A DNA stretch of 64,000 bases. Origin: Candidatus Poribacteria bacterium (GTDB lineage Bacteria; Poribacteria; WGA-4E; WGA-3G). The translations under genes and the position numbers were made by a program. Shown here one piece after another: positions 45,735-63,284 of this stretch (its first letter is position 1; each line of letters begins with the position of its first letter). The DNA is taken from contig CAXXLX010000001.1 of the NCBI GenBank assembly GCA_963665235.2, positions 3,104,001-3,168,000 of the forward strand. The letters are read 5' to 3'. The notes beneath the pieces are model-generated. The model ran no database searches. It saw only the letters and a list, made by a program, of their open reading frames with translations, and had not been told where the DNA came from.

Positions 45735-46609
45735 TACCCTTGAAGAGGAGCCGTTCCGAGAAGGACATCTACCCCAACTTTCACGGCAAGGCAAAGAGAA
45801 CTTTTGAAAAGGAATTGCTGCTCAACCAGAGGCGTATCATGCGCGGCGAAATTCGAAAACACACTTTCAATAGCGAGCGCTGGAAAAAAGCGAAAAAACA
45901 ATTGCTTGCCGAGACAGGCGGTAAATGTGCCTACTGCGAAGTATCAATTTCAGAGGCCGCGTTCGGGGATGTTGAACATTATCGCCCCAAGAGTAAGTAT
46001 TGGTGGCTCGCTTACTGCTATGACAATTATCTTGCCTCATGTCAACTGTGCAATCAGAAGTACAAGAAAGATGCTTTTCCTGTCCAAAATTGGCGGATGT
46101 GGCAACCTATAATTTGGAGCGACATATCAGACGAATTTATAGCGGCTATAACAGGGACAATCGCGCCCGACCCGTTGAATAAAACGCAGGTTAACGCCTT
46201 CATCCACCGCCATGAACAGGAACGTCCACTTCTGCTCAACCCTTATTTCGATGATCCTTCTGAATACTTTGCATGGAGAGCTGATGATGTACTGAGAGAA
46301 GTTGAAATCACTGCTAACCCTGACAGTCCGGAAGTTGAAACCATTGCTAACACAAGAAACCGTGAAGTTGAGTCTATTGCTGCAGCATCCATTGATCACT
46401 ATGGTTTGAATCGTAAGGAACTCAGAAATCGCAGATACAGGATTTACAAGCAGTATAGAAGATTCAAACAAATACTTGAAGATAATGGAATCAGTCCAGA
46501 AACTCGGAACCTGAGTATAAGTGCTATAGAAGAAATGAAGGCACCGGATGCCAGATTCGCAGGTATGATTCGGTACTTTGATGAACTTCCTTCTAAATCT
46601 GAACCTTGA
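45731..46609 (+). CDS. HNH endonuclease, Septu PtuB-like
   Basis: KCAYCE, DVEHYRPK, CQLCNQKYK, PLLLNPY; GTGA overlap with the ATPase. Confidence 0.88.
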   Translation: MIPLKRSRSEKDIYPNFHGKAKRTFEKELLLNQRRIMRGEIRKHTFNSERWKKAKKQLLAETGGKCAYCEVSISEAAFGDVEHYRPKSKYWWLAYCYDNYLASCQLCNQKYKKDAFPVQNWRMWQPIIWSDISDEFIAAITGTIAPDPLNKTQVNAFIHRHEQERPLLLNPYFDDPSEYFAWRADDVLREVEITANPDSPEVETIANTRNREVESIAAASIDHYGLNRKELRNRRYRIYKQYRRFKQILEDNGISPETRNLSISAIEEMKAPDARFAGMIRYFDELPSKSEP

Positions 46610-49160: not shown

Positions 49161-49574
49161 ATGAAGTTAGAAACACCCGAGTTAGTATATCAAAAGACAC
49201 GTTCCTCTACATACGCCTGTGAGTATCATATCATTTGGTGTACGAAATACAGGCGCACGGTTTTGTCTACTGAAATCCAAAATAGGTTTAAAGACCTTGT
49301 CTTAGAATCTCAAGATAAATACGGTTACGTTGTCCGTGCGGTGGAAACCATGACGGACCACGTGCATTTGTTGATTAGCATTCCTCCCACGGGAGCTGTT
49401 GGTATCATGATTGGCAAGATAAAAGCAATGACGGCAAAAGTGTTACGTGAGGAGTTTCCACACTTAAAATCAAGACTTCCGAATTTGTGGACACGCTCCT
49501 ATTTTGTTGCCTCTACAGGCGGTGTAACCCTCGATGTTTTAAAGCAGTATGTAGCAGATCAAAAAGGTGTATAG
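49161..49574 (+). CDS. tnpA: Y1 HUH transposase
   Basis: YHIIWCTKYR, DHVHLL, LWTRSYF, KQYV..Q. Confidence 0.95.
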   Translation: MKLETPELVYQKTRSSTYACEYHIIWCTKYRRTVLSTEIQNRFKDLVLESQDKYGYVVRAVETMTDHVHLLISIPPTGAVGIMIGKIKAMTAKVLREEFPHLKSRLPNLWTRSYFVASTGGVTLDVLKQYVADQKGV

Positions 49575-50785
49575 TGCGAAACACAAAACACAAACTTTTT
49601 CACGATAAGACCTTAAAGCGTCTACATGACGACCTAAATATCTGTGGTGTTGTGCGAAATCACTTCATCGCCCTATCTATGCGATATTACCGTCGCTACG
49701 GTAAGGGTTTGTCGTATGGCAAAATGTCTGCGCACCTAACAAAACTAAAGAAACTGAAGAAGTATGCCCATTGGAATATTCCGTATTCCTGGGCGTTACA
49801 AAATGTGGTGAAACGCCTTGCTCAATCTTTTAGAGACATGCGGACGCACAAACGCGGGCACCCCCAATTCAAGAAATGCCACAAGCACAAAGGCATGACG
49901 TTTCGCGGTGAACAGGTGAAAATAGAAAAGTTGCTTGCCCCACAAAAGCACGAAAGAAATAATCCTACCTATAAAATTCGCCTAAACGGACACTGGTATC
50001 GTTTTGCTTTGCATCGCGAGATAAAAGGTGAAATTAAAGAAGTTCACGTCACCCGTGACGCACTCGGAGCCCTCTATATCACACTCACTGAAGACTATAG
50101 CGAAGTCCTACCCGAGCCCAAGACAGGTAAAGCTGAAGGGTTTGATATGGGTATCAAAGATTTCCTGACTGGCAGTGATGGTAAACGATATATGTCTCCT
50201 ATGTTCTACAAACAGAACGCGAAAGACTTAGCCAAGGCACAAAGGGCGTATTCACGCAAGGTTTCAGGTTCTAATAATCAAGCACGAAGTCGGCAGCAAG
50301 TTGCACTTATCCATAAGCGGACTGTGAATCAGAGAATAGACCACCATTGGAAACTTGCTATTGACCTCTGTCGGCAGTTTGATATTCTGTTCTTTGAAGA
50401 CCTAAATCTTAAGGGCATGAAACAGATTTTAGGGAAACAAGTATCGGACCTTGCTTTTGGTGAGTTCATGCAAAAACTGAAACACCAAGCGAAAAAGCGG
50501 ATACGTTTTGTGCTGAAGATTGACCGTTGGATACCCACAACAAAAACCTGTTCTGTTTGCGGAGATAAAAACGAAACACTCACGTTAGCAGATAGAGAAT
50601 GGACCTGTCCGAGTTGCTATACGCATCTTGACAGAGACCACAACGCTGCTATCAATATTCTTAAGGAGGGGGTAGCCTCCTTTGGGTTAGGTATTGTAAG
50701 ACCTATTGTTTTGTTCAACAAAATTGTAGGCATCACCGTTGAAGCCACCAGTCGGCTTCTGAATTCCACAAATGCTTTCGTCTAA
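49574..50785 (+). CDS. tnpB: RNA-guided endonuclease TnpB
   Basis: GTG overlaps the tnpA stop; RuvC GFDMG, FEDL, DRDHNAA; zinc finger CSVC/CPSC. Confidence 0.93.
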   Translation: MRNTKHKLFHDKTLKRLHDDLNICGVVRNHFIALSMRYYRRYGKGLSYGKMSAHLTKLKKLKKYAHWNIPYSWALQNVVKRLAQSFRDMRTHKRGHPQFKKCHKHKGMTFRGEQVKIEKLLAPQKHERNNPTYKIRLNGHWYRFALHREIKGEIKEVHVTRDALGALYITLTEDYSEVLPEPKTGKAEGFDMGIKDFLTGSDGKRYMSPMFYKQNAKDLAKAQRAYSRKVSGSNNQARSRQQVALIHKRTVNQRIDHHWKLAIDLCRQFDILFFEDLNLKGMKQILGKQVSDLAFGEFMQKLKHQAKKRIRFVLKIDRWIPTTKTCSVCGDKNETLTLADREWTCPSCYTHLDRDHNAAINILKEGVASFGLGIVRPIVLFNKIVGITVEATSRLLNSTNAFV

Positions 50786-51321
50786 CATAGGACGGAAGCC
50801 CCCAGGCTTTAGCTGGGGGTCTATCACGAATTGAACGCGGACACCTTGCACAAAATGGATCAGAGCGATGCATCCGATACGGTCAAGGTGCAGAATTTAA
50901 GGAGGGTATTGCATCAGACGGTAGCAGACGAAGGCAAATCAAAACCTTTCCTCATCTCAATTGGTGAACGCGCAGAAGCGGTTGCAGAGGTTTATGAAAA
51001 TCGTCAGGTTGGAACGCAAGACATTTTAGCTGAATATAGGAGGTTAGCTGAAGAAGTTTCACGCGCTACAAGAGAACAGAATCAGATGGATATGGACCAG
51101 AATACCTATGCGGTCTATACGGTTCTCAGAAATGCTATAGAAGATGTTAACCCAGAGCAGGCGCGAGCCGTTAATCAGGTGTTTGCAGAATTTCCCGATT
51201 ATCGGTGGGATGACCATCAACAAAACCAGTTACGGAGGACACTCTACAAAACATTGAGACCCACTATCGGTAACGAAAACCTAATCGAAACGACGAACAA
51301 ATTGTTGAGGTTAGAACGCGT

Positions 51322-51636
51322 ATGAACACCGATAGAGCGGATTTGAAAGGAGCAGTGCGGCAGTGGGCAGTCCACATCGGTGTTGAGGTACGAGAGATTC
51401 ATCTACGGCACATGCAACGGAAGTGGGCATCTATATCCACGAACGGACGTTTAACCCTCAACACAGAGCTGCTCAGCATGCCCGAAACGTTGACAGAATT
51501 CGTGATTGTCCATGAGTTGGTACATCTGCTTGTCCCGAATCACGGCAAGTTGTTTAAGGGGTATATGTCCGCGTATCTGCCGGATTGGGAGGAACGGCAG
51601 TTCCGTTTAAAATCGTTATCTGTGGAGAACGTTTGA
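51322..51636 (+). CDS. YgjP/DUF45-like zinc metallopeptidase (short form) downstream of hsdR
   Basis: MQRKWAS, VHELVHL..PNHGKLF. Confidence 0.85.
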   Translation: MNTDRADLKGAVRQWAVHIGVEVREIHLRHMQRKWASISTNGRLTLNTELLSMPETLTEFVIVHELVHLLVPNHGKLFKGYMSAYLPDWEERQFRLKSLSVENV

Positions 51637-51735: not shown

Positions 51736-52704
51736 ATGAAATCAAAATATAGCAAATCTCTACTCATTTCAATTGTACTACACCTCGGCATCGGCCTCAT
51801 AGGTTTCTTTTACTGGTTCGGCACCAACCCGATGGACGACACGCCAAGCATTGAAGCACTCTTTGTCCAGGCAGAAAAGCCGAAACCGAAACGGATACCG
51901 CCACCAAAACGTCCGCAAGTGCAACGCAAAACGACACGTCAGGTGAGCGAACCGAAACTGAAAATTCTCACGAGCAATCAACCGGCAACATACCGCGGAA
52001 TTGTTTCAGCTGCTGAGCCGACCGAGTTTCAACCGGTCGGTAAACTGAATCTGGCGGAAAGCGTCGAGCCCATGCCGACCCAAATTGAATTTCAAGAGAT
52101 ACCCCGCATACAGCGCGGCGTTGAACAGCCTATCAAGAAACAGCCAGAGACGGAAACCCGCTATAAGAGCCGTTTGGTTAAGTTCATTGAAGCGCAACCG
52201 GGCCCGCAAAGCATCGTCTACTGCGTCGACCTATCTAACAGCATGCAAGATTTGCCCGCCCATAAACTCAAAAAGATTATTGACCTCATGCGCAACTCGT
52301 TGACATTCCTTGAACCGCACGACCGCTTTAATATCATGGCGTTTAGTGCTGAATTAGTTATCTATCAGAAGCAGTTTGTCCCAGTGACAGCGGAGACGGT
52401 GACCGCCTCGGCAGTGTATTTAGCGAACATCACATCTCACATTCACACAGATGGTGCTGACCACGATATGCTAACAGCGTTGACAGAAACGGCAAAAACC
52501 GCGCCCACTATCGTTGTGCTCTTTAGCGATGGAATTCCGACCAGTATTGCTGTACCAAACCTCACGTTGATAAGCAGGCATGCTGAAGGGAATGGACAGA
52601 TTTTTGCTATGAGCATCGGGATGGCACCCGATTTTCCCGGTGCAGTGATGCTAAAGCAGCTTGCCACTGTGAGTAAAGGCGACTTTTGGCTTGTCGATAG
52701 GTAA
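51736..52704 (+). CDS. Membrane-anchored von Willebrand A domain protein
   Basis: SIVLH TM anchor, Pro/Lys-rich linker, MIDAS DLSNSM, LFSDG. Confidence 0.82.
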   Translation: MKSKYSKSLLISIVLHLGIGLIGFFYWFGTNPMDDTPSIEALFVQAEKPKPKRIPPPKRPQVQRKTTRQVSEPKLKILTSNQPATYRGIVSAAEPTEFQPVGKLNLAESVEPMPTQIEFQEIPRIQRGVEQPIKKQPETETRYKSRLVKFIEAQPGPQSIVYCVDLSNSMQDLPAHKLKKIIDLMRNSLTFLEPHDRFNIMAFSAELVIYQKQFVPVTAETVTASAVYLANITSHIHTDGADHDMLTALTETAKTAPTIVVLFSDGIPTSIAVPNLTLISRHAEGNGQIFAMSIGMAPDFPGAVMLKQLATVSKGDFWLVDR

Positions 52705-52752
52705 AAAAGTCGTAGGCGGACACCGTTGCACCGTAACAAGAGAAATAACCGC

Positions 52753-54540
52753 ATGTCCCCATCATCAATTCACACGCGTGCAGAGAAAATTGCTGAAGGA
52801 TTGTATCCGCACCAAATAGAGGGTATCGCCTTTCTGCTTGGTCGTCGCCGCGCGCTTCTTGCTGACGATATGGGGCTCGGCAAAACCCGACAATCTATCA
52901 TCGCCATGGTTGAAGCGGAAGCGGAGGGCCCCTATCTCGTTATATGTCCGGCTTCTGTCAAACGGAATTGGGCACGCGAAATCCAAATCGTGCTTCCGAC
53001 AGCCAACCCCACTATTGTCGGCCCCGCACCGCTTCCATCAAATAATTACCGAGACTGGATTATCATCAACTACGCGCTGCTCGGTAAACATATAGAGGGT
53101 CTCCTCACATTTGACTGGAAAGGGGTTGTTTTTGACGAGGCGCATTACCTGAAAAATCATCAGAGCCAGCGCAGCCGGAACGCTACCAAACTACTCAAAG
53201 CGATTCCGCATGAGCCGATAGTCCACGCCTTAACCGGCACCCCGATGACGAATCGGCCCCGCGACCTTTTCCCACTCTTGCAATTAACAAATCACCCACT
53301 CGGCAAAAGTTTTCTCAGCTTCGCCAAGCGTTACTGTGATGCCTATCAGGGGGAATACGGTTTGGTAGCCGATGGCGCAAGCAATATTGAGGAATTAACT
53401 GTCCAGCTTCACGGAGTCATGCTGCGCCGCACTAAAAATGAGGTATTGGACCTACCCCCAAAGGTGCGAACGTGGTTGGATGTTGAACTGCACCCTTACG
53501 CCATTCAACACTTCAATAGTGCGGTCCGTGAGTTTCTGACCAAATTTGATGCAGCTGCACCTGTCGAGGCTTCTGAGGCGGAGCCGGAAAATTCGGGGCG
53601 GCGGCACGCTGTCGGTCGGTTAACCACTGCCCGCCGAAAGCTCGCCTTTGCCAAATGCAGGCAGACCACCAAGTTCGTCGAAAACGCCTTAGAACAGGGT
53701 GAAAAGGTTATCCTCTTCACTAATTTTCTCAATACAATGGAACGTTTCCACAAGCATTTCGGTGACCGAGCCGTTTTCGTCTCTGGTGAAGTGTCCGCCG
53801 AAGAACGACAAAATCGGGTTGACCAATTTCAAAACGACAAAAACGTCAGACTTTTCATCGCCAATATGCACACCGCCGGGGTAGGGATAAATCTAACGGC
53901 AGCACGCCAAATCGTCTTCAACGATTTAGATTGGGTTCCCGCAAATCACTGGCAGGCAGAAGACCGTGCTTACCGCATCGGGCAGACCGGAACTGTTAAC
54001 GTCACCTATATGATAGCGCGCGGCACGGTAGATGAATTTGTCAAAACTGTGCTGGAAACCAAAGCAGCACTTATGGCTGCTGTCGTTGAAGGCACACTGC
54101 TGATACCGAATAGCGAAGGTGAGGTGCAAACCGATGTCCTCAGCGAACTCAAGCGGATGATGAACATCCTCTCCGTACATGCCACCGATGTTGCGGAGAC
54201 AGAGCTGCACGGTGTACTCCAAAAAGCGAGCGACACCTATCTTGAAGAGAACGTCTCACATCTCAAGGAAGCTGCTCGGGTGCAGCTACGTCCCTATTCC
54301 GAAGAAGCCATCCGTACCTTAGTCCAAGTCCTCGCCGGTCCGAAGCGGCAGTGCTATCGTGTTGAGAGTTCATCACAAAACGGCAAGTTTTACACGTTGG
54401 AGGTTGTCGGGGTGGATGTGACCTGCGATTGTCCGGGCTTTACGCACCGCGGGAGCTGCCGACATGTCAGGCCTCTGAAAGCTGCGCTCGTTGCAGAAAA
54501 ACCACCCCCAGAAGAATATAGGAACGTTTCATCCGATTAG
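52753..54540 (+). CDS. SNF2-family helicase with C-terminal SWIM zinc finger
   Basis: LADDMGLGKT, DEAH, LTGTP, QAEDRAYRIGQ; CDCPGFTHRGSCRH. Confidence 0.9.
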   Translation: MSPSSIHTRAEKIAEGLYPHQIEGIAFLLGRRRALLADDMGLGKTRQSIIAMVEAEAEGPYLVICPASVKRNWAREIQIVLPTANPTIVGPAPLPSNNYRDWIIINYALLGKHIEGLLTFDWKGVVFDEAHYLKNHQSQRSRNATKLLKAIPHEPIVHALTGTPMTNRPRDLFPLLQLTNHPLGKSFLSFAKRYCDAYQGEYGLVADGASNIEELTVQLHGVMLRRTKNEVLDLPPKVRTWLDVELHPYAIQHFNSAVREFLTKFDAAAPVEASEAEPENSGRRHAVGRLTTARRKLAFAKCRQTTKFVENALEQGEKVILFTNFLNTMERFHKHFGDRAVFVSGEVSAEERQNRVDQFQNDKNVRLFIANMHTAGVGINLTAARQIVFNDLDWVPANHWQAEDRAYRIGQTGTVNVTYMIARGTVDEFVKTVLETKAALMAAVVEGTLLIPNSEGEVQTDVLSELKRMMNILSVHATDVAETELHGVLQKASDTYLEENVSHLKEAARVQLRPYSEEAIRTLVQVLAGPKRQCYRVESSSQNGKFYTLEVVGVDVTCDCPGFTHRGSCRHVRPLKAALVAEKPPPEEYRNVSSD

Positions 54541-54571: not shown

Positions 54572-55594
54572 CTAACGAATCCGATACCGCTCCACAGCGT
54601 CCATATCCAGACTGATACCCAGCCCCGGGGCATCTGATAGGTTTATAGCACCGTTTGAGAGGTCCATACTACCGCCAGATAGGTCATCAATGCGGATGTG
54701 TGGCAGTTCGTCAATCGGCATTGTGCAGTTCGGCACTGTACATACGAGATGCGCAGCGAAGGTCGACGCAACACATGAACCGAACGCGAAGAGCTGCACC
54801 CAAATCGGTATATCCGCAGCCTCGGCAACGGCTGCACTTTTGCGAAGGCCCGCGACATTCCCGAACGTATTCACCGCATCCACCGCATCGGCGCGGATGT
54901 TTTTCAAAACCTCTTGGGGTCCCCCGATATGCCGAGCGACTGGGACCTCTACCTTCTCCCGAAGCTGCCGATACCAGGACAAATCTTCAAACCGAATCGG
55001 GTCTTCATAAACCTCTATGTTATACGGCAGCAGCTCCTGTGCTAATCGGAGCCCCGTTTCCAAATCGCCAAACTCCGTATTCGGGTCAACGCGAATCTGA
55101 AAGTCTGGCCCGCATGCCTCCGTGATTAGGCGTGCCGTTTCAACGATATTCGCGCTGCGCGCCTTGAGTTTATGCACTCGAAACCCTAGGTCCGCTGCGC
55201 GTTCCGCCTCTGCTGCTGTTGCCTCTGGTGGCATCGGCGGCGACCAATAGGCAAGTTCAACACTATCCCTACATTTCGCGCCGATTAACTTATAAGCAGG
55301 TACACCGAGGGCCTGCCCTGCCAAATCATAAAAAGCGGACTGAAGCGCGAATCCCTCGGAAGCAAGGTCGATATCCCAAAGATTTCTGCCGACATACCTA
55401 TCCGCAATAGAATCCGCTTGGTCCGTAATATCGCCATGCGCCGCAGCACTTTCCCCTAAGCCTACTAGGCCTTCATCTGTGTGCACCCAAATTAAGGTTG
55501 TTGGATATTCCATGCCCGAGTGTTCCTGTATCGCAGGAATGAACGGGATAGAAACAGTACGGTATTCAATAGATGTAATTTTCATGGGTTGCAT
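54572..55594 (-). CDS. Mandelate racemase/muconate lactonizing enzyme family
   Basis: TDEGLVGLGE, YDLAGQ, HKLK, VDPN, YEDP, PGLG. Confidence 0.88.
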   Translation of the reverse strand: MQPMKITSIEYRTVSIPFIPAIQEHSGMEYPTTLIWVHTDEGLVGLGESAAAHGDITDQADSIADRYVGRNLWDIDLASEGFALQSAFYDLAGQALGVPAYKLIGAKCRDSVELAYWSPPMPPEATAAEAERAADLGFRVHKLKARSANIVETARLITEACGPDFQIRVDPNTEFGDLETGLRLAQELLPYNIEVYEDPIRFEDLSWYRQLREKVEVPVARHIGGPQEVLKNIRADAVDAVNTFGNVAGLRKSAAVAEAADIPIWVQLFAFGSCVASTFAAHLVCTVPNCTMPIDELPHIRIDDLSGGSMDLSNGAINLSDAPGLGISLDMDAVERYRIR

Positions 55595-55697: not shown

Positions 55698-55727
55698 TTG
55701 ACGTACCCACAAAATTAATGCTATACT
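55698..55727 (+). promoter_or_regulatory. Putative sigma70 promoter of the Argonaute operon
   Basis: TTGACG-N18-TATACT with TG extension, about 110 bp upstream of the TTG start. Confidence 0.5.
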
Positions 55728-55838
55728 CAATTTCAGTGGGACGAGCCTGTTAGTTGAAAACCCTTCGGGGCGGTATGTGTCCCGTAATATTCAGATTTGG
55801 CATTAGCATTTACCACAAAATCTTGAGAGGACAGCATT

Positions 55839-58601
55839 TTGGTATTTCAAACGGCAACTATTGGACGCTTACGTTCACTCTTTTCACAGGGCCCCGAGCC
55901 GATTTTCCTGCTGGGTGCTGGTGCTTCTGTTAAATCGGGTATTCCACTATCACATGATATGGTGGAAAAAATCGCTAGATGGGGGTACTGCCTTGATAAC
56001 GGCTTGGAGCCGAAAGACCCACGCCCACGGCGTAGCGACTGGTACCCGTGGTTGAGAAGGCAGAAGTGGTATCGAGAGGATTGGGAATTGGTGGCGCACT
56101 ACCCCGCAGCTGTAGAAAATACGCTTCGACCCCGTCAAACCCGAAAAGATTTCTTTCTGGACATCCTAAAGACACAGGTGGAACCGAGTAGCGGTTATAA
56201 GCATCTTGCGGAACTTATGGCGCGGGAACACGTTCGTACCGTGCTCACCACAAATTTTGATACAATTTTGCAAGATGTGTGCAAAGCAAACAAGCGGCCC
56301 CACCATATAGAGGTCATCCAGACAACGTCTGACTATACGAAATTATCAACGAGTCTGCCATACTCACAGCTCGTCTATCTGCACGGTTCCGTTGAACATT
56401 ACACCGACAAGAACACTGTTGCTGAAATAAACGAAGAACTGCACCCGGACCTTGTATCAAAGGTGCTGCCATTTTTAAGAGACCACCCGTTGATTGTCAT
56501 AGGTTATCGAGGGGCGGAACCTTCTATCATGAAGCATCTTCTTATTGATAATGCAGCGGCGGCAGAGGGATATCGACACGGCATCTATTGGTGCGCGCGA
56601 AATTATACAGAAGATTCTGACAGTCTCACTCCGTTCGTACATGAACTCGCCGGAGAGATTCAAGCAAACTTTCAGGTTGTCCCTATTGATGGATTTGATG
56701 AAGTAATGGAGGACTTATGGCATCACGTTCAACAGCACGTGCAGGATTATCATCAACCGCAAGTCCACACGGTTACAGAAGAATCGCCATCGCTTCCCCA
56801 TGATTTCAAGAAACTCACCGACGCTACGCTAGATGATTTTGATTGGCCCCCTATGAGAGTTCGACTATTGCAGTACTGCCAAACGACCGTATTACAAATA
56901 CCACCTGTAGGTGTTAGGAACGACGATTGGTTTACGCAACTATTGTGTAATCAACATCTCGCTTCACGGACAGAAGAGGGGAACATTTTCCCAACGGTGG
57001 GGGGGTACTTACTCTTTGCTGAAACCCCACAGCACCAAATCCAAACTGCTCAAGTCGTAGTACGTCTAAAGGGAGATGCAAAGTGGCTCAGAACTGTTTT
57101 CGATATCTCCGAGGGGGAGACAGAGCAGATAATCGTAGGGAACCTTTGGGCCCAACTTGAAGATATATATACCCTATTTTCCCGTGTCAACCGCGGGTTC
57201 GTCCTAAAAGGCGGGCGACACTCAAAAAATGTGTCCCCCTATCCGCCAGATGCTTTGAGAGAGATAGTTGTCAATGCACTTGTGCACCGTGACTACAAGA
57301 AAGATGCACCCATCCTGATTGAAATTGAGCAGACCTATATTCGTGTCCACAATCCAGGCGGATTGGTTCAAGATGTTGTAGACCAGATGAGAGGAACATC
57401 CCAAGAAGAGATAAAAAGCGTGTTTGAAACAAAAATCAAAGGTGGAAACAGCATCCAAGGTTACCGAAACCCGGTGGTAGCAGACCTGTTCTACGGGGCA
57501 GCGGAAATGGAGAAGGCAGGCTCTGGACTATCAAAGGTATGGCAGGCAAGCGAGGAGAACAACAATGAAGTGAGCTTTGGACCTGTGGATAACAACACCG
57601 CTTTTGAAATAACAATCTCCCGGCGCCCAGAAGTCGTTGACGATACTACGGGAACTGCCTATAGGGAGGATAATTTCGACCGCTACGCGAGCAATCTCCT
57701 TGAGGTCAGCAGCTTCCCTGAGGTCGTTTGGCACGCTGGCACCGACGCACGAAAAATAGGGGAGGTGTGGGACAAAACCGGTGCAGACTGGTTGCCACCG
57801 TTTATGCTCTATGCTGAAAGACTTTTCACTTTCGACATGCTTTCCACACCCGCCAATCCGCTCTATCCTATAATAGACGCTAACGATATAGCGAAGATGA
57901 CTGTTGACGAATTTATCGACGTTCACGGTGAACAACGTTTCGTCTGGCTCCTCAATACGTGTTTTTTCAGACATCTTGAGGCACAAGGACTATGGGTAGA
58001 CAAAACGCGAAAACGTGCATATTTTCCTAAAACCGATGAAAATGCTCGAGAGGTCACCTATCAGGCGCGTGTGCGCCGTGCCACCCGAAAAGTGGTGAAA
58101 AAGAGAAAAAATTATTGGGAGCATAAATCCTTTTGGTTTCGGTTTGAACGTTTCGGTGATTTTTGGGCACTTGTCCTACTTCCCAGTTATGTTTTCACTA
58201 CTGATGGAGAAGATGCACGTTTACCAAGGGATTTGGTTAACAAATTTTCCAATAGGCACCAAAGTCGCGACTATAACAATGTTGTCCACAATGACCTTGT
58301 GTTCTGGACACAAGTGCTTTCAGGTGGAAAACAGGGCACTTTTGCACTCAATACAGGGCAAGCTGACACGATTGCAGCAAACGAAATTCATCAACTCAGC
58401 AGACCCCAAATCCGGATTACAGCAAACCTGTCTGCAACCGAAGGGCTCGATTTCAAGGCTGATGCGCGGGGCATTGAACGCTCTGATAAGTTGGATACTA
58501 CCCAATTGGAGGCGGAATTCTCACAGGCTGTTTCACAATTGGCGGAGGAAGAAGATGTTAATTCAGATGGAACTTACCCATTTACCGCCTCCCGAAATTG
58601 A
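55839..58601 (+). CDS. SIR2-like (DHS-like) + HATPase/RecG-C-like + APAZ protein, short pAgo partner
   Basis: LLGAGAS..SGIP, TTNFD, LHGS, IGY; ALREIVVNALVHRDY, NPGGL, RNP, EKAGSG; ASNLL, YWEH, LPSYVFTTDG. Confidence 0.8.
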   Translation: MVFQTATIGRLRSLFSQGPEPIFLLGAGASVKSGIPLSHDMVEKIARWGYCLDNGLEPKDPRPRRSDWYPWLRRQKWYREDWELVAHYPAAVENTLRPRQTRKDFFLDILKTQVEPSSGYKHLAELMAREHVRTVLTTNFDTILQDVCKANKRPHHIEVIQTTSDYTKLSTSLPYSQLVYLHGSVEHYTDKNTVAEINEELHPDLVSKVLPFLRDHPLIVIGYRGAEPSIMKHLLIDNAAAAEGYRHGIYWCARNYTEDSDSLTPFVHELAGEIQANFQVVPIDGFDEVMEDLWHHVQQHVQDYHQPQVHTVTEESPSLPHDFKKLTDATLDDFDWPPMRVRLLQYCQTTVLQIPPVGVRNDDWFTQLLCNQHLASRTEEGNIFPTVGGYLLFAETPQHQIQTAQVVVRLKGDAKWLRTVFDISEGETEQIIVGNLWAQLEDIYTLFSRVNRGFVLKGGRHSKNVSPYPPDALREIVVNALVHRDYKKDAPILIEIEQTYIRVHNPGGLVQDVVDQMRGTSQEEIKSVFETKIKGGNSIQGYRNPVVADLFYGAAEMEKAGSGLSKVWQASEENNNEVSFGPVDNNTAFEITISRRPEVVDDTTGTAYREDNFDRYASNLLEVSSFPEVVWHAGTDARKIGEVWDKTGADWLPPFMLYAERLFTFDMLSTPANPLYPIIDANDIAKMTVDEFIDVHGEQRFVWLLNTCFFRHLEAQGLWVDKTRKRAYFPKTDENAREVTYQARVRRATRKVVKKRKNYWEHKSFWFRFERFGDFWALVLLPSYVFTTDGEDARLPRDLVNKFSNRHQSRDYNNVVHNDLVFWTQVLSGGKQGTFALNTGQADTIAANEIHQLSRPQIRITANLSATEGLDFKADARGIERSDKLDTTQLEAEFSQAVSQLAEEEDVNSDGTYPFTASRN

Positions 58602-60042
58602 ATTTGGTTCGCCGGTCATCTCTACCGATTTGAAAATCGGACTTACTGAAGCAGGCCCGTTCGACCTGCGTTTCGGGGCCGCTCACAAAAAAGAAATTCG
58701 CGTTGGGCTCGTCGGAAATGCCGAAATGCTAAAGCAGGCGCAGCAATGGCTTAAACGTTGTCAGGCGCACATCCCATCGGAATTGGACACTGAAGGCTCC
58801 ACACAACATAAGGCGTTTCCCGGATTTGAACCTATTTTCCGTGCCTCACTTGTAGTGAACGAGCAATGGACAGAACTAATTGGAGATAATGAGCTTGAGG
58901 CGGCACTCTCAAAAAATAATCCATCCCGTTTTGAGGCGGTGTTAGCACGTTATGCAAACGCAGCCGAGAAACTCGCTGATAACACCAATATCCCCCCCGA
59001 TGTTGTGATATGTTGTTTGCCTGACGAAGTCGTCCAAACCTGTTCGAGCATATCAAAATCCTTGACTCCACAGCAGCGGAAACTCATTAAGAGGCGACAA
59101 GCTGAACGTGAACAGGGACAACTCGTTTTATTTGACGACATAGAAGAGACAGAAACTGATCTGCTGAATCGGGATTTCAGACGTGCTTTAAAAGCCCGGA
59201 CCATGAAATTTGGTATGCCAATTCAGATTGGGACAAATCGTCTGTTTGAAGATCAGGACACTAATCAGGATGCTGCTACGCGAGCGTGGAACATGAGCGT
59301 GGCACTCTATTACAAAGCGGGCGGGATACCGTGGCGTTATAAAACAACAGGTCCAGAAACCTGCTTTGTCGGTATCAGTTTTCATCACCTGCGAACGCCA
59401 ACAAAACATATTGTCTACGCTAGCTTAGCACAAGCGTTTTCAAGTCGTGGCGAAGGGTTTGCACTTCGCGGAGAACCCATCCCTTGGAAGGAAAAACAGG
59501 GCAGAAATGTTCATCTAACTGCTGAACAAGCAACCAAACTTGCAGGTCAAGTCCTTCAAGAATACAGTGAACAGACAGGCGGAAATCCGAAGCGGGTTGT
59601 GCTTCATAAAACATCAAAATTTGATGACTCGGAACAGGAAGGCTTTAAACACGGTTTTCGCGATATTCCGATAGTTGAATTAATTAATATTATGCCGACA
59701 CACTTTCGGCTCTTGACATACGGCGCGTATCCACCGACAAGAGGAACTTTTTGTACGGTGAATAAGACAGCCACATATCTGTTCACCACAGGTTACATGC
59801 CTGAATGGCGAACATATCCCGGTCCCCACATCCCTGCCCCCGTCCGGCTTGTAAGCGATGATAATGTCGACATGCATCAGGTCGCTGCTGATATCCTAGG
59901 TCTTGCCCGGATGAATTGGAATACTGCAAGCATGAGCAGTGGTCATCCTGTGACGCTCTATTTTTCCCGTCGCGTTGGGGGTATTATGGCAGAAGTAGGA
60001 GAAAACGAACAGCCGCATCCCTCTTTCCGGTACTATATATAG
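58555..60042 (+). CDS. Short prokaryotic Argonaute (MID-PIWI, catalytically inactive), 495 aa
   Basis: ATG 58555 after GGAGG; FRRALKA, PIQI, YYKAGGIPW, CFVGISF, VVLHKTS, YPPTRGT, LARMNWN, PVTL. Confidence 0.9.
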   Translation: MLIQMELTHLPPPEIEFGSPVISTDLKIGLTEAGPFDLRFGAAHKKEIRVGLVGNAEMLKQAQQWLKRCQAHIPSELDTEGSTQHKAFPGFEPIFRASLVVNEQWTELIGDNELEAALSKNNPSRFEAVLARYANAAEKLADNTNIPPDVVICCLPDEVVQTCSSISKSLTPQQRKLIKRRQAEREQGQLVLFDDIEETETDLLNRDFRRALKARTMKFGMPIQIGTNRLFEDQDTNQDAATRAWNMSVALYYKAGGIPWRYKTTGPETCFVGISFHHLRTPTKHIVYASLAQAFSSRGEGFALRGEPIPWKEKQGRNVHLTAEQATKLAGQVLQEYSEQTGGNPKRVVLHKTSKFDDSEQEGFKHGFRDIPIVELINIMPTHFRLLTYGAYPPTRGTFCTVNKTATYLFTTGYMPEWRTYPGPHIPAPVRLVSDDNVDMHQVAADILGLARMNWNTASMSSGHPVTLYFSRRVGGIMAEVGENEQPHPSFRYYI

Positions 60043-60199
60043 CGATTAGCAATTAGCACTTGGCGATTGGAAACCAGAGGTTGTGATTCTAAGAGGAACT
60101 CTGAAGCGCGTCAGAGGTTTCTCCTCGAGTGTACACACCCTAAAATCCGTGTCCTCTGTGTTCTCCGCACTAATCCGCAATTCTGAACACGCGCCAAAT

Positions 60200-60355: not shown

Positions 60356-61711
60356 ATGCCACAAAAACCTAATGTCATTGTCTTTTTCACGGACCAACAG
60401 CGATGGGACACTTCCGGCTTACACGGCAACCCACTTGATCTCACGCCTAACTTCGATCGGATGGCACAACGGGGCACCCACATACGTCGCTCCTTTACGT
60501 GTCAACCTGTCTGCGGGCCCGCACGTTCATGTCTCCAAACCGGATTATATGCCACAAGCACGGGCTGTTTTCGAAACGGTATCCCGTTATCACCTGAACT
60601 CAAAACGCTTGCACACCATTTCAGCGAGGCGAACTACGCCACCGGATACATCGGAAAGTGGCACCTCTATAGCGGAGGCACTGGCCCCGGTCCTGTGCCT
60701 GCTGAGCATCGCGGGGGATACGATTATTGGTTAGCCTCCAACGTACTGGAATTCACCTCCGATGCCTATCAGACAACACTCTACGATAACGATAATCAAC
60801 CTGTTGACCTGCCCGGCTATCGCGTGGATGCCTTAACCGATGCTGTGATTCGCTACGTCGATACGCATAAAAACGAACCCTTCTATCTATTCACGTCATA
60901 CATTGAACCGCATCACCAAAACCATTTGGACGATTATCCGCCGCCGGATGGGTATCGGGAGAGGTATACAGGGAAGTGGATACCCCCTGATCTTGCCGCC
61001 CTCGGCGGCTCGACACACCAGCACCTCGGTGGCTACTACGGTATGGTAAAAAGATTGGACGAAGCACTCGGTAGACTTTTAGACGCGCTGAAGAGCTTAC
61101 ATCTGCTTGATAACACTATCCTTCTTTTTACCTCCGACCACGGGTGTCATTTCAAAACGCGCAACAGTGAATACAAACGTTCATGTCATGAGAGCTCCAT
61201 CCGTGTTCCGACAGCGTTCCACGGACCTGGGTTTATCGGCGGGGGGCAGGTTCAGGAGCTTGTCAGCCTCGTCGATCTGCCGCCGACACTGCTTGATGCT
61301 GCAGGATTATCAGTACCCGCTGAAATGCAAGGACGTTCTATCCTGCCGCTGCTGCGTGATGAAACTGACGCGTGGCCGGAGGAGGTTTTCGTCCAAATTA
61401 GCGAGGCACAGGTAGGACGAGCTGTTCGCACCCAACGTTGGAAATACGGTGTAGATGCCCCGAAAAAAAGCGGGGGAAGAGACGCTGGCTCCGACCAGTA
61501 CGAGGAGCAATACCTTTACGACCTCCAAGCCGACCCCTACGAGTTACGGAATCTCATCGGGTTGCGTTCGCATGAAAATGTCGCTGCGGTCATGCGGGAA
61601 CGGCTCATTCAGCGGATGGTGGAAGCAGGCGAAGATGCACCGACAATCACGCCAGCCACACCACAAGGCAGTGGACAACGCAGCGTCTCCGATGCGGAAG
61701 CACGGAGCTAA
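60356..61711 (+). CDS. Cys-type sulfatase
   Basis: PNVI..FTDQQR, CGPARSCLQTG, GKWHL, SDHG. Confidence 0.93.
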   Translation: MPQKPNVIVFFTDQQRWDTSGLHGNPLDLTPNFDRMAQRGTHIRRSFTCQPVCGPARSCLQTGLYATSTGCFRNGIPLSPELKTLAHHFSEANYATGYIGKWHLYSGGTGPGPVPAEHRGGYDYWLASNVLEFTSDAYQTTLYDNDNQPVDLPGYRVDALTDAVIRYVDTHKNEPFYLFTSYIEPHHQNHLDDYPPPDGYRERYTGKWIPPDLAALGGSTHQHLGGYYGMVKRLDEALGRLLDALKSLHLLDNTILLFTSDHGCHFKTRNSEYKRSCHESSIRVPTAFHGPGFIGGGQVQELVSLVDLPPTLLDAAGLSVPAEMQGRSILPLLRDETDAWPEEVFVQISEAQVGRAVRTQRWKYGVDAPKKSGGRDAGSDQYEEQYLYDLQADPYELRNLIGLRSHENVAAVMRERLIQRMVEAGEDAPTITPATPQGSGQRSVSDAEARS

Positions 61712-61723
61712 TAAGGAGAAACA

Positions 61724-62869
61724 ATGAAAATTACAGACGTTAAAACCCTAGTGATGGGGACAAGTTGGCGCAACTTAACCTTCGTTAAAGTTGAAACCGA
61801 TGAAGGTTTGACAGGTATCAGCGAGGTGCGAATGAACAACCGGACGGATGCCCTCGTTGCGTATATTGATGGCGCGAAACGTCGACACATCATCGGCAGC
61901 GACCCGTTCAATACGGAAGACCTCTACCAACGCATGTTCCGAGATGACTACGGACGGGCCGGTGAAATCGTAGCGACCGGCATCAGCGTTGTGGAAATTG
62001 CATGTTGGGATATTATCGGTAAGGCATTGAACCAACCTGTCTATCGCTTGCTCGGTGGAAAGTGCCGAGATGAAATTAAGGCTTATGCAAACGGGTGGTA
62101 TCGTGTCGAACGAACCCCGGCGGAATTTCATGCCGCCGCCAAAAAGGTGCTCGAAAAAGGATATAAAGCACTCAAGTTCGACCCGTTCGGGGCAGGTTAT
62201 TATGAGCTCTCTTACGAGGAAAAGTTGAGATCTGTTTCACTTGTTGAAGCGGTGCGGGATTCTGTCGGGCCCGATGTGGAAATCCTCGTCGAAATGCACG
62301 GTAGGTTCAGTCCTTATACAGCGATAGAGATTGCCGCAGAATTGGAGAAATTTCAACCGAGCTGGGTGGAAGAGCCTGTACCCCCGGATAACATCGCAGC
62401 ACTTGCCAAGGCAGCCGATAAAATTAACCTGCCTGTCGCCACCGGCGAAAGACTTCACAACAAATATGAGTATCGCGAACTGATAAACCTACAGGCAGCC
62501 GATATTCTCCAACCCGATATTACACAAACAGGGGGTTTTTTGGAAACAAAGAAAATCGCCGCAATGGGGGATATGTGTTATATGACTGTGGCACCCCATA
62601 ACGTCGGCGGTACGGTTTCTACTGCAGCTGCTTTACATCTCGCTGCCTGCACAACCAACTTCAAAATCCAGGAGAATTTCAACGACTTTTCTGAAGCATG
62701 GGTTAAGGAGGCAGCGACAGGATGCCCCGAAGTCATCGATGGTTATTTCAGCTTGCCGAACGGGCCCGGGCTCGGCATGGAATTGAATGAAGACCTTATC
62801 GCTGAACATCCCTATCGTGAAGGGTCATTCAACCTTTGGGAAGACGATTGGCACAAACGGGAGTATTAG
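61724..62869 (+). CDS. Enolase-superfamily acid-sugar dehydratase (galactonate dehydratase-like)
   Basis: WDIIGK, YANGW, KFDPF, EMHGR, EEP, TGE, APHN. Confidence 0.88.
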   Translation: MKITDVKTLVMGTSWRNLTFVKVETDEGLTGISEVRMNNRTDALVAYIDGAKRRHIIGSDPFNTEDLYQRMFRDDYGRAGEIVATGISVVEIACWDIIGKALNQPVYRLLGGKCRDEIKAYANGWYRVERTPAEFHAAAKKVLEKGYKALKFDPFGAGYYELSYEEKLRSVSLVEAVRDSVGPDVEILVEMHGRFSPYTAIEIAAELEKFQPSWVEEPVPPDNIAALAKAADKINLPVATGERLHNKYEYRELINLQAADILQPDITQTGGFLETKKIAAMGDMCYMTVAPHNVGGTVSTAAALHLAACTTNFKIQENFNDFSEAWVKEAATGCPEVIDGYFSLPNGPGLGMELNEDLIAEHPYREGSFNLWEDDWHKREY

Positions 62870-62870
62870 A

Positions 62871-63284
62871 ATGAGACAGACAACGGAAATTGAACTTACA
62901 AATTTGGGAGACGTAGTTTTGGCAAACAGAGATATTATTACCCCCGAAGAGGTTCGCAGTGTGGTAGTTGAAGATGCCCTCGTTGATACGGGGGCAACAC
63001 GGTTATCTTTACCGAAACCGATCATTGAACAACTCGGTTTGACCCCCTTCGACACATTGAAAGCGAGAACCTCGAATGGCATCGTAGACCGGACCCTTTA
63101 TTCAGCAGTTCAATTCACTGTATTGGGTCGGACAGGTTCGCTGCCTGTAACGGACCTACCATCGGATGCCCCTGTACTTGTTGGACACATGGTTTTAGAA
63201 CAATTGGACCTCTGTTTAGATATCAGAAAAGGGCTCATCTATAACCCAGAGCACGACAACGAATGGATTGACGAGGCGTGGTAA
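62871..63284 (+). CDS. Retropepsin-like (clan AA) aspartyl protease
   Basis: ALVDTGAT and VLVGHMVLEQLD motifs. Confidence 0.85.
   Translation: MRQTTEIELTNLGDVVLANRDIITPEEVRSVVVEDALVDTGATRLSLPKPIIEQLGLTPFDTLKARTSNGIVDRTLYSAVQFTVLGRTGSLPVTDLPSDAPVLVGHMVLEQLDLCLDIRKGLIYNPEHDNEWIDEAW

Follow-up and report, generated by a model that had tools for sequence, protein, structure and literature searches.

A two-gene operon lies on the plus strand at positions 55839 to 60042 of the window (the whole 64,000-nucleotide stretch of Candidatus Poribacteria DNA that was analyzed). Gene 1 encodes a large partner protein and gene 2 a short Argonaute (pAgo). From 5' to 3', the features of the locus are:

55698..55727, plus strand: sigma-70-like promoter-like site (TTGACG, 18 nt, TATACT, with TG upstream of the -10)
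55825..55831, plus strand: Shine-Dalgarno-like GAGAGGA, 7 nt 5' of the gene 1 TTG, from reading the sequence
55839..58601, plus strand: gene 1, SIR2 - GHKL - APAZ partner protein, 920 aa, TTG start
55839..56738, plus strand: SIR2 domain, aa 1-300, with cofactor loop G26-S38 and catalytic N139 and H182
56790..57023, plus strand: N-terminal subdomain of the central module, aa 318-395 (model m596338562027, pLDDT 93)
57024..57638, plus strand: Bergerat-fold GHKL ATPase-like domain, aa 396-600 (Pfam PF13749, VIA-align, Foldseek)
57690..58424, plus strand: APAZ domain, aa 618-862 (profile and Foldseek matches)
58428..58598, plus strand: disordered C-terminal tail with the acidic patch AEEEDVNSD (pLDDT <50 at aa 864-920)
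58544..58549, plus strand: Shine-Dalgarno GGAGGA within the end of gene 1, 5 nt 5' of the pAgo ATG
58555..60042, plus strand: gene 2, short pAgo (MID-PIWI), 495 aa, ATG start
60099..60116, plus strand: weak terminator-like hairpin, 57 nt 3' of the pAgo stop (6 pairs, poor T tract)

The initial annotation had described two intact, overlapping reading frames, and the ORF list and ortholog starts confirmed them, with a 47-bp overlap at 58555-58601. The open frame of the pAgo spans 58144..60042, of which the ATG at 58555 yields the 495-aa product, and in each gene the ortholog consensus starts where the predicted protein does. The internal GGAGGA is a candidate element for translational coupling of the pAgo to gene 1. 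The promoter proposed earlier is present as a consensus match (10/12 hexamer positions), but as the outcome of a consensus scan only it is weak evidence, with 10 such sites in the region against 6.7 +/- 3.1 in shuffles. Terminator-like sites were likewise no commoner here than in shuffles.

All previously quoted motifs were located in the two translations; those of gene 1 are GAGAS (26-30), TTNFD (137-141), LHGS (181-184), REIVVNALVHRDY (474-486), NPGG (505-508), RNP (543-545) and EKAGSG (558-563). Sequence and fold searches backed the suggested order of SIR2, GHKL-like ATPase and APAZ modules. The PADLOC profile PDLC02402 (Aga_SIR2-PNTD1-PNTD2) matched gene 1 with 1028 bits, aligning aa 8-906 with profile positions 2-869 of 876, and PDLC02418 (Aga_SIR2-Kinase-PNTD1-PNTD2) scored 738 bits. 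Pfam placed SIR2_2 at aa 134-257 (8e-10), and a family profile matched GsSir2 of SPARSA (8in8_B, 8jkz_A) over aa 15-305 (E 7.6e-21). In pairwise alignment, N139 and H182 correspond to GsSir2 N142 and H186, described in the accessible part of PMC11452484 as crucial for NADase activity. Both residues are invariant in 42/42 close orthologs, and 90% or more of 50 distant members retain them. Some family members bear an extra N-terminal enzyme domain (PNP_UDP_1, Metallophos or Trypsin_2). With a pTM of 0.37, the full-length model of gene 1 does not fix how the three modules are placed relative to one another.

The C-terminal region had been called APAZ-like, and Foldseek indeed matched it to APAZ chains while recovering a GHKL-like central module. 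With the full-length model as query, 9qbp_A (TMt 0.63, E 8.4e-14) and 9om4_A (TMt 0.70, E 9.4e-14) ranked ahead of the SPARTA APAZ chains; E-values against SPARTA and SPARDA chains ranged from 1e-8 to 1e-13. With the family profile, the SPARHA HNH-APAZ (9om4_A) reached E 2.4e-23, and SPARDA DREN-APAZ proteins about 6e-9.

Gene 2 matched the PADLOC pAgo_I model PDLC02376 over its full length (510 bits). In a PDB sequence search, its closest chain was the SPARHA Ago (9om4_B, 5.4e-71), followed by SPARDA (9jsb_A, 3.6e-49) and SPARTA chains (3.3e-48 to 4e-45), with the SPARSA GsAgo (8in8_C) reaching only 1.4e-20. The corresponding scores were 243 bits for the SPARHA Ago, 157-171 bits for the SPARTA and SPARDA pAgos and 76 bits for GsAgo, a ranking against solved chains that puts the pAgo, putatively, in clade S2B and apart from SPARSA. 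As first suggested, the MID-PIWI protein is catalytically dead: DEDX is absent, and VGISF (272-276) and the HKT of LHKTS (350-354) are identical to the aligned positions of the nuclease-dead AcaAgo. Its RK-type 5'-phosphate pocket, R209/K213/Q224/K254, is invariant in 12/12 orthologs. R209, K213 and D207 align with AcaAgo R180, K184 and D178, which, according to the accessible part of PMC12738770, secure the guide in SPARHA by its 5'-phosphate and first base.

The central 283-aa module is built on a GHKL fold, on which VIA-align and Foldseek agree. HATPase_c_4 (PF13749) was detected at aa 490-577 (1.5e-6; 28.6 bits, with a Pfam cut-off of 26 bits). The best structural match was DIP2311 of Corynebacterium diphtheriae (PDB 3lmm, chain A), with Z 21.8 over 233 aligned residues (chain residues 173-410). 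Among the matches listed, DIP2311 was the only solved structure sharing the N-terminal subdomain (residues 173 onward). The remaining 49 listed were nearly all histidine-kinase CA, PDK or anti-sigma-kinase domains (Z 6.3-8.6), and these kinase-type matches cover model residues 79-283. The landmarks comprise the N-box E475/N479, NPGG, RNP, the GSG at 561-563 and a lid insertion at about aa 515-535. Across 50 family members with 28-46% identity to the query, E475, N479, H483, G507, N544, G561 and G563 are invariant in 50/50, against a mean column identity of just 26%; for E475, N479 and H483 the invariance extends to 43/43 pAgo-linked and stand-alone homologs. This conservation argues for a working nucleotide site rather than a mere spacer. 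In pAgo-linked forms, the lid segment linking NPGG to RNP is longer by one helix, of about 15-20 residues; among the rows listed, this insertion was present in 13 pAgo-linked and absent from 30 stand-alone sequences. In classical GHKL proteins, the G1-box aspartate contacts adenine; its counterpart is Asn505 in gene 1 and Ser in most stand-alone homologs. PF13749 domains normally lack this aspartate, yet the RzAgo domain of this family binds ATP.

Comparison with characterized systems placed the sensor and the effector near different relatives. SPARSA (S1A/S1B; Geobacter sulfurreducens GsSir2/Ago, PDB 8in8, 8jkz, 8y80) likewise carries SIR2 N-terminal to APAZ beside a co-encoded nuclease-dead MID-PIWI pAgo, and GsSir2 is the closest solved SIR2, with its cofactor loop and catalytic Asn/His kept in gene 1. 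However, the SPARSA partner measures about 585 aa against 920 aa here, because of the GHKL module between SIR2 and APAZ, and its pAgo and APAZ are distant: sequence and family-profile searches with gene 1 gave no match to the GsSir2 APAZ. The acidic tail of gene 1 is a further difference, since the accessible part of PMC10899771 reports such tails in S2A and S2B and not in S1B. SPARHA (HNH-APAZ, S2B; Acidithiobacillus caldus, PDB 9om4) provides both the closest solved pAgo and the closest solved APAZ, and shares the guide-anchoring residues, VGISF, HKT and the two-gene operon; its effector, in contrast, is an HNH DNase activated in filaments. SPARTA (TIR-APAZ, S2A) and SPARDA (DREN-APAZ, S2B) share the sensor logic and APAZ fold, and tails of the gene 1 type have been reported for SPARTA, whereas both carry other effector domains and lack the GHKL module.

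The closest parallel for the central module comes from RzAgo of Runella zeae, a long-B pAgo with an N-terminal "Schlatpase" (SLFN_AlbA_2 plus PF13749 GHKL) described in bioRxiv 10.64898/2026.05.29.728809. In the accessible text of this preprint, the GHKL domain likewise sits between effector and sensor, its N-terminal subdomain and Bergerat fold are of similar size (about 300 aa), and its ExxxN pair E314/N318 is the equivalent of E475/N479. According to the same text, the domain binds and hydrolyzes ATP, with Mg and the gamma-phosphate coordinated by E314/N318, and RzAgo dimers become tetramers via the ATP lid in response to ATP or ATP-gamma-S. RzAgo differs in being a single chain with PAZ, whose effector is an SLFN tRNA nuclease rather than SIR2. 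SLFN_AlbA_2 is not detectable in gene 1 by Pfam or by comparison with a paralog, and since the SLFN domain reportedly supplies about 60% of the RzAgo interdimer interface, the oligomer may differ. Relative to DIP2311 and other COG2865-type Schlatpases, gene 1 retains the middle part only, without AlbA_2 and the C-terminal wHTH; its lid helix sets it apart from the stand-alone forms. SLFN-APAZ partners of short pAgos are mentioned in the preprint, and the word SIR2 has no occurrence in its main text.

The operon had been described as standing alone among catabolic genes. This holds for its immediate neighbors, a minus-strand MR_MLE enolase-family gene (54572-55594) and a sulfatase gene (60356-61711), but not for the wider setting: a defense island just upstream, at 39.3 to 54.5 kb, carries a type I RM system, Septu PtuA/PtuB and a VWA plus SNF2 helicase pair. 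Gene 1 and the pAgo are the only genes common to 13/13 loci, which represent four or more phyla. Full-length orthologs occur in Poribacteria, Blastocatellia, Sphingomonadaceae, Rhodobacterales and Bacteroidota, and were present in 4/40 relatives, with one additional decayed copy. In one relative the site is empty, with the same genes on either side; the operon itself is a ~4.4-kb indel in a variable position beside the island. Its GC content is 0.45-0.48, compared with 0.51-0.54 in the flanks. The occurrence among relatives, empty site, low GC and nearby island constitute a defense-type distribution. The genome also encodes stand-alone paralogs of the central module, such as a 460-aa SLFN_AlbA_2 + HATPase_c_4 + DIP2311-like_C protein.

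Overall, we consider it probable that the locus encodes an S2B two-gene short-Argonaute defense system whose effector combines a SIR2 NADase, a PF13749 GHKL domain and APAZ, acting in five steps. The APAZ of gene 1 and the MID-PIWI pAgo would form a heterodimer, as both proteins are homologous to solved SPARHA, SPARDA and SPARTA chains and their genes are coupled and overlapping. The pAgo pocket would then load 5'-phosphorylated small RNA guides and recognize complementary invader DNA, as every characterized short pAgo does, with the acidic tail presumably holding back the resting complex as in SPARTA. Target binding may drive pAgo-pAgo assembly into tetramers or filaments, by comparison with SPARHA and SPARDA, the closest characterized relatives. 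Assembly would unite the SIR2 domains and, judging from SPARSA, allow NAD+ hydrolysis via N139/H182 and hence abortive infection. Finally, the GHKL domain may bind ATP via E475/N479, adding, between sensor and effector, a further self-association surface that depends on nucleotide. This last step, drawn from the RzAgo PF13749 domain, is the least certain of the mechanism.

The same defense system could retain its NADase output with the GHKL module as a nucleotide-independent scaffold, a rigid spacer or constitutive dimerization element that sets the APAZ-SIR2 geometry while ATP plays no regulatory part. Asn505 fits this reading, as do the truncation of the module, whose alignment to the 460-aa paralog is confined to residues 144-378, and the ability of SPARSA, SPARTA, SPARDA and SPARHA, in the accessible accounts, to function without it. 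Yet invariant E475, N479 and glycine motifs in so divergent a family are hard to reconcile with a mere spacer, and PF13749 reportedly binds and hydrolyzes ATP in RzAgo; we regard a scaffold as unlikely. The toxic output might also be something other than plain NAD+ depletion, with GHKL as a PDK- or anti-sigma-factor-kinase-like protein kinase or SIR2 as a signal-maker or ADP-ribosylator. The structural neighbors of the module are kinases (histidine-kinase CA, PDK2, BCK, SpoIIAB), PADLOC names a sister model "SIR2-Kinase", and the extra N-terminal enzyme domains of some members imply that outputs may be layered. However, a Z of about 8 means common fold, not common function, neither a phospho-acceptor nor a DHp-like element was observed, the SPARSA NADase is the nearest of the solved SIR2 domains and its catalytic pair is conserved, and PF13749 in RzAgo is described as an ATPase switch and not a kinase, all of which make this very improbable.

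Quite improbable too, if slightly less so, is that the operon is a recently acquired passenger, intact by sequence yet silent or non-functional here. The decayed copy in a relative (G014) has an internal deletion and a stop codon, and the type I RM and type II-like REase genes of the same island are both broken. A look-up of RNA datasets listed none containing the locus, which weighs neither way. Against this, both ORFs of the operon are full length, with intact starts, Shine-Dalgarno sites, and catalytic and pocket residues.

The architecture had been catalogued before: Ryazansky 2018 lists it as og_40, "RecG/DHS-like-APAZ", in clade S2B, matching the bioinformatically noted DHS/RecG-like APAZ clade named in the initial annotation, and a full-length PADLOC model already exists. 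Our literature search found no functional, biochemical or genetic study of the SIR2-GHKL-APAZ family, in line with the earlier statement. The locus is thus an additional member of an already catalogued short-Argonaute type. The "ATP-sensing or oligomerisation layer" proposed for it has a precedent in RzAgo and would apply to the gene 1 system by analogy only. In the two-gene defense system that we favor, such a layer would let the NADase fire only if target DNA and ATP were both present.

The candidate immune unit consists of two genes on the forward strand, which are listed here with the signals that precede them.

55698-55727, forward strand: sigma-70-like site, consensus match
55825-55831, forward strand: Shine-Dalgarno-like GAGAGGA, ahead of the gene 1 start
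55839-58601, forward strand: gene 1, partner protein of 920 aa, TTG start
58544-58549, forward strand: Shine-Dalgarno-like GGAGGA, ahead of the gene 2 start
58555-60042, forward strand: gene 2, short prokaryotic Argonaute (pAgo) of 495 aa, ATG start

The ORF list and the translations reproduced the two intact, overlapping reading frames proposed in the initial annotation, with an overlap of 47 bp, and every motif that it had quoted was found at its given place in the translations of both genes. The consensus starts of the orthologs fall on the residues matching 55839 for gene 1 and 58555 for gene 2. The frame of gene 2 is already open from 58144, and a 632-aa product beginning at the TTG at that position was considered; it was dropped because the orthologs begin at the ATG equivalent to 58555, with GGAGGA just before it. 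Sigma-70-like sites are only slightly more frequent in the region than in shuffled sequences (10 observed versus 6.7 +/- 3.1). No RNA sequencing run containing the locus was listed; the five runs listed are of unrecorded kind and from two studies.

Several searches agreed on the anatomy of gene 1. Pfam placed a SIR2_2 domain at aa 134-257 (8e-10), and the PADLOC model PDLC02402, "Aga_SIR2-PNTD1-PNTD2", covered nearly the whole protein (aa 8-906 versus profile positions 2-869 of 876, 1028 bits), with its sister model "Aga_SIR2-Kinase-PNTD1-PNTD2" scoring 738 bits. We also searched solved structures, both with the single sequence and with a profile of 42 orthologs. The profile matched, from the N-terminus to the C-terminus, GsSir2 of the SIR2-APAZ system SPARSA (aa 15-305, E 7.6e-21), the uncharacterised protein DIP2311 (PDB 3lmm; aa 441-515, 2e-7), and the HNH-APAZ protein of SPARHA (9om4_A; aa 623-840, 2.4e-23), followed by the DREN/DUF4365-APAZ proteins of SPARDA. 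An AlphaFold model of the full-length protein separated the modules as follows.

aa 1-300: SIR2 domain
aa 302-318: linker
aa 320-596: central module
aa 597-618: linker
aa 620-860: APAZ domain
aa 864-920: disordered C-terminal tail with an acidic patch

When this model was searched with Foldseek, all matches listed were APAZ-bearing partner chains of SPARDA, SPARHA, SPARSA, or the TIR-APAZ system SPARTA (best 8.4e-14), with TMt values of 0.63-0.71 for APAZ-sized chains. The succession of SIR2, ATPase-like, and APAZ modules that had been read from the sequence is borne out by the sequence and fold searches taken together. In the SIR2 domain, the alignment equates N139 and H182 with GsSir2 N142 and H186, and G26-S38 with the GsSir2 cofactor loop G25-A37. 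In GsSir2, NAD+ hydrolysis depends critically on N142 and H186, and the loop forms the nicotinamide pocket (PMC11452484).

The contacts between domains in the full-length model were too uncertain to read (pLDDT 69.5, pTM 0.37), which led us to fold the central module by itself. For this we used aa 318-600, aligned with 13 homologs that are linked to a pAgo and 30 that stand alone, the latter comprising 29 of 70 non-ortholog loci and one paralog from the genome of the window itself. The resulting model was of high quality (pLDDT 93.2, pTM 0.90). Against 48,161 representative chains, VIA-align matched it to DIP2311 with a Z of 21.8 over 233 aligned residues (chain residues 173-410), and nearly all of the other 49 matches listed were histidine-kinase CA, PDK/BCK, or anti-sigma-factor kinase domains (Z 6.3-8.6, model residues 79-283). 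Similarly, Foldseek returned 3lmm_A (5.5e-13) and then CpxA, PDK2, CheA, and others (1e-4 to 1e-2). Because of these matches, aa 396-600 are predicted to adopt the alpha/beta sandwich of the Bergerat (GHKL) fold. In the same model, aa 318-395 form an apparent N-terminal subdomain, shared only with DIP2311 among the matches listed. Pfam recognised HATPase_c_4 (PF13749) at aa 490-577 (1.5e-6), with 28.6 bits just exceeding the gathering cut-off of 26, and the same family was matched at E <= 0.01 in all 42 orthologs.

In other proteins, this ATPase accompanies a Schlafen (SLFN) domain. The aa 326-590 region of gene 1 aligns (25% identity, E 2e-16) with residues 144-378 of a 460-aa stand-alone paralog, downstream of that protein's Schlafen/AlbA_2 domain and upstream of its C-terminal wHTH. 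We searched for the SLFN_AlbA_2 domain of the Schlatpase supradomain and found none in the whole of gene 1 at E <= 0.1, and none in aa 300-616 at E <= 1. An AlbA_2 domain inside the central module was accordingly rejected, there being no Pfam match and the alignment being confined to the part of the paralog that follows AlbA_2. Judging from these alignments, the central module therefore corresponds to the ATPase half of an SLFN-ATPase pair, in which SIR2 holds the usual position of SLFN. The pAgo-linked forms carry an extra lid helix of ~15-20 residues between the NPGG and RNP motifs.

Conservation of the module was examined in two alignments. E475 and N479, the ExxxN pair for Mg and the gamma-phosphate, are invariant in both (50 of 50 and 43 of 43 proteins). 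In the alignment of 50 family members, which share 28-46% identity with the query and have a column identity of 26% on average, H483, G507, N544, G561, and G563 are invariant as well, and N139, D141, and H182 of the SIR2 domain are retained in at least 90% of the proteins. By this measure, conservation in the family is stricter for the predicted ATP-site residues than for the SIR2 catalytic pair. Since the nucleotide-site residues were strictly kept while the family diverged to a column identity of about 26%, the module is probably more than a spacer. A complex prediction for two central modules with two ATP and two Mg (score 0.00, mark 0.42) spoke neither for nor against self-association.

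Stand-alone relatives of the module also occur outside the operon. The genome of the window encodes a 460-aa protein of the "Schlatpase" type (SLFN_AlbA_2, HATPase_c_4, and DIP2311-like_C; L002:1018-2400, at about 3.40 Mb of G000:C1) and further such relatives elsewhere, and most genomes of its relatives hold several matches to the central module of gene 1.

The product of gene 2 has MID and PIWI domains only, with neither an N nor a PAZ domain. It aligns along its full length with the PADLOC model pAgo_I (aa 5-495, 510 bits) and, over aa 6-495, with short pAgos from SPARDA and SPARTA. The initial annotation described it as lacking the DEDX residues, and indeed, by motif reading, VGISF (S275) and HKT (T353) are identical to nuclease-dead AcaAgo, the Argonaute of SPARHA, at the aligned positions. 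R209, K213, Q224, and K254 are invariant in all 12 orthologs and constitute a predicted 5'-phosphate pocket of the RK type, which is one of the two 5'-phosphate motif types typical of short pAgos (PMC6299218). The spacing of the pocket residues (+4, +11, +30) fits the Y/R-K-Q-K motif for 5'-phosphate binding and is close to the +4, +11, +28 of RsAgo, where the pocket consists of Y463, K467, Q478, and K506 (PMC6299218). [quoted passage not shown]

Among solved chains, the pAgo scored best against the SPARHA Argonaute 9om4_B (5.4e-71, 243 bits), followed by SPARDA 9jsb_A (3.6e-49, 171 bits) and the SPARTA chains (3.3e-48 to 4e-45, 157-168 bits), and reached only 1.4e-20 and 76 bits against GsAgo of SPARSA. 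The APAZ domain of gene 1 likewise matches HNH-, DREN-, and DUF4365-APAZ proteins, with no match to the APAZ part of GsSir2. These two score rankings, both made against solved chains, favour placing the sensor half of the system (pAgo and APAZ) in clade S2B rather than in clade S1, where the SIR2 systems belong. Like SPARSA, the system has a SIR2 effector in which the catalytic Asn and His are present. However, SPARSA has a two-module SIR2-APAZ partner, or a fusion of it to the pAgo, whereas here a 283-aa GHKL module lies between SIR2 and APAZ, and the pAgo and APAZ do not appear to belong to the S1 lineage.

The three-module protein defines a sizeable family. A word-indexed search with gene 1 returned 474 proteins at E <= 1e-3, and 119 of the 120 matches listed are 874-954 aa long and align over at least 90% of the query (55-93% identity). 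The few named matches are from Candidatus Poribacteria or are called [quoted passage not shown]. In the alignment of gene 1 with 41 of the listed proteins, all 42 carried both SIR2_2 and HATPase_c_4. Among species-representative genomes, 10 of the 80 loci kept encode the three-module protein (four in Candidatus Poribacteria, two in Blastocatellia, and one each in Sphingobium mellinum, Sphingopyxis indica, Shimia biformata, and Pontibacter litorisediminis); the remaining 70 comprise 69 whose match is confined to the central module or its surroundings and one whose match is confined to the SIR2 domain. Four of 40 relatives of the genome of the window hold a full-length ortholog, and one more holds a decayed copy. 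In that copy (L008, on G014:C63, from a relative of the same family), gene 1 matches only over aa 1-587, with an in-frame TAG, and the pAgo only over aa 335-495, so that an internal deletion must span the junction of the two genes.

At each of the 12 distinct ortholog loci, gene 1 is directly followed by the pAgo. ORF clustering of the window and these 12 loci revealed no conserved third gene; the other clusters common to the loci, which were candidates for one, proved to be antisense shadow ORFs inside gene 1 or gene 2. The system is thus a two-gene unit with a patchy distribution across phyla, found at a variable site.

An exhaustive search with aa 318-920 of gene 1 recovered 91 clusters at 50% identity (E <= 1e-30). 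We picked 25 of the 150 listed proteins for a contiguous GHKL and APAZ match and a spread of lengths. SIR2_2 and HATPase_c_4 were found together in 19 of these, which are all the whole partners scanned, and the remaining six (P0127, P0135, P0139, P0153, P0216, and P0228; GHKL-APAZ proteins of 581-662 aa) had HATPase_c_4 with no detectable SIR2. These six may come from truncated gene calls or split genes, or may represent a form that lacks SIR2. Three proteins have four modules, with an extra domain N-terminal to SIR2-GHKL-APAZ: PNP_UDP_1 (the nucleoside phosphorylase/nucleosidase superfamily), Metallophos, or Trypsin_2 (P0126, P0131, and P0152). Another three, P0124, P0173, and P0148, have 220-400 N-terminal residues with no domain assignment ahead of the shared modules.

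The operon had been described as standing alone, a view that its surroundings contradict, since restriction-modification, Septu, and other candidate defense genes lie upstream. They run in the order hsdM, a broken type II-like restriction enzyme gene, hsdS, Septu ptuA/ptuB, hsdR, and a VWA and SNF2 pair, after which a single MR_MLE gene precedes the operon.

39349-40599: hsdM, intact
40913-42960: four consecutive ORFs (147, 127, 220, and 149 aa) matching successive parts of one ~700-aa PADLOC "REase_II" model, PDLC03419
43003-43437 and 43362-44270: hsdS, two overlapping ORFs
44340-46609: Septu pair between hsdS and hsdR, PtuA (464 aa, PDLC00295, 425 bits) and PtuB (292 aa, PDLC00339, 118 bits)
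46606-47064, 47055-49058, and 50831-51325: hsdR, three pieces
49487-50785: IS605-family TnpB/OrfB gene, inserted before the last hsdR piece
51736-54540: VWA protein (322 aa), then SNF2 helicase (604 aa)

[quoted passage not shown] The SNF2 helicase matches the helicase part of the ZorD and DpdE models (200 and 153 bits) and has no nuclease part, and PADLOC called no system for the VWA and SNF2 pair, which may be another defense pair. On the other side of the operon, the end of an MR_MLE gene is overlapped by a 165-aa ORF (62787-63284) whose product has a retropepsin-like aspartyl protease domain (gag-asp_proteas, 1.1e-6).

The sulfatase gene downstream of the operon is single-copy and 86-91% identical in all 15 relatives of the same family. 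The interval between SNF2/VWA and this sulfatase was different in every relative examined. In G007 (L095), one of 11 relatives' loci examined, the site is empty, the MR_MLE ortholog and the sulfatase being 315 bp apart; in G003 (L102), the VWA gene adjoins the sulfatase; and in G012 (L101, G012:C1:876000-889000), about 12 kb of other genes intervene, encoding 976- and 1136-aa proteins with no Pfam matches, a lectin, an FGE-sulfatase, a D12 methyltransferase, and a 384-aa protein. The interval behaves as a variable hotspot. The GC content of the operon is 0.45-0.48, compared with 0.51-0.54 in the flanks. The gene 1/pAgo operon forms an accessory cassette, located at a variable site.

In short Argonautes, the workings of four classes of effector have been established, namely SIR2, TIR, DREN, and HNH. 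Other classes have been recognised by bioinformatics, as the initial annotation noted for a DHS/RecG-like APAZ clade: Ryazansky et al. (2018) catalogue the architecture as og_40, Finocchio et al. (2024) list "RecG/DHS-like" as one of the effectors of S2B and also describe the acidic tail (PMC10899771), and the SPARHA paper mentions "additional uncharacterized effectors" in S2B (PMC12738770). Koopal et al. described the DHS-like domain as a predicted NAD/FAD binder, the sections of the article covered here reporting no test of this (PMC9097488). In the literature searched, the "RecG/DHS-like-APAZ" branch of clade S2B is named only in lists. Full-text literature, a scope that leaves out many subscription journals and supplements, yielded no characterisation of the SIR2-GHKL-APAZ architecture, in agreement with the initial annotation, which knew of none. 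Given a dedicated PADLOC model and the mentions in reviews, the locus belongs to a type of system that is already catalogued yet uncharacterised.

The closest precedent for the central module comes from a May 2026 preprint on RzAgo, a long SLFN-pAgo (bioRxiv 10.64898/2026.05.29.728809). Its PF13749 GHKL domain hydrolyses ATP and binds it specifically, with E314 and N318 holding the gamma-phosphate and Mg, and ATP or ATP-gamma-S converts dimers to tetramers, a step that relies mostly on the GHKL domain with its lid and turns on the SLFN nuclease. The preprint refers to short pAgos with SLFN-APAZ partners, and "SIR2" does not occur in its main text. The "RecG-like" part of the branch is the same PF13749 GHKL ATPase that drives ATP-dependent tetramerisation of this long Argonaute.

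Computation provides the parts of the system and their closest relatives, the conserved SIR2 pair, the ExxxN and glycine motifs of the GHKL module, the 5'-phosphate pocket of the pAgo, and the two-gene unit. A plausible course of events can be outlined from them. The APAZ domain of gene 1 and the pAgo would form a stable heterodimer, as suggested by their homology to both chains of 9om4 and by the gene overlap. The pAgo would use an RNA guide and a DNA target, and target binding would induce a higher-order assembly, as in SPARHA and SPARDA. Assembly would then activate SIR2 as in SPARSA, depleting NAD+ and causing abortive infection, and the acidic tail may restrain the complex, as in SPARTA. 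The least certain step is the second firing condition that ATP-dependent self-association of the GHKL module might impose, as in RzAgo. The initial annotation had guessed at an ATP-sensing or oligomerisation layer between target recognition and NAD+ cleavage, which seems reasonable by analogy and now has a precedent in RzAgo. Two points count against this step, however: in the PF13749 family, Asn or Ser takes the place of the classical G1 aspartate, and the RzAgo oligomer also leans on its SLFN domain, which is absent from gene 1.

We offer only tentatively, and with more doubt than conviction, the idea of a two-input AND gate, in which pAgo assembly on invader DNA and ATP-dependent GHKL self-association would both be needed for an active SIR2 NADase oligomer. 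SIR2-GHKL would then be an ancient, fixed effector-switch cassette, onto which some lineages bolted a second enzymatic warhead (a nucleosidase/phosphorylase, a metallophosphoesterase, or a trypsin-like protease).

The window offers a clean, intact example of the "RecG/DHS-like-APAZ" branch, which for the field is a good experimental target and a sensible next one, rather than a surprise. The cultured carriers Sphingobium mellinum DSM 7458, Pontibacter litorisediminis KCTC 52252, Shimia biformata JCM 18818, and Sphingopyxis indica DS15 make it testable whether NADase-type abortive infection is licensed by ATP besides target DNA. If the AND gate is true, this would be the first short-Argonaute system with an output gated by the nucleotide state of the cell.
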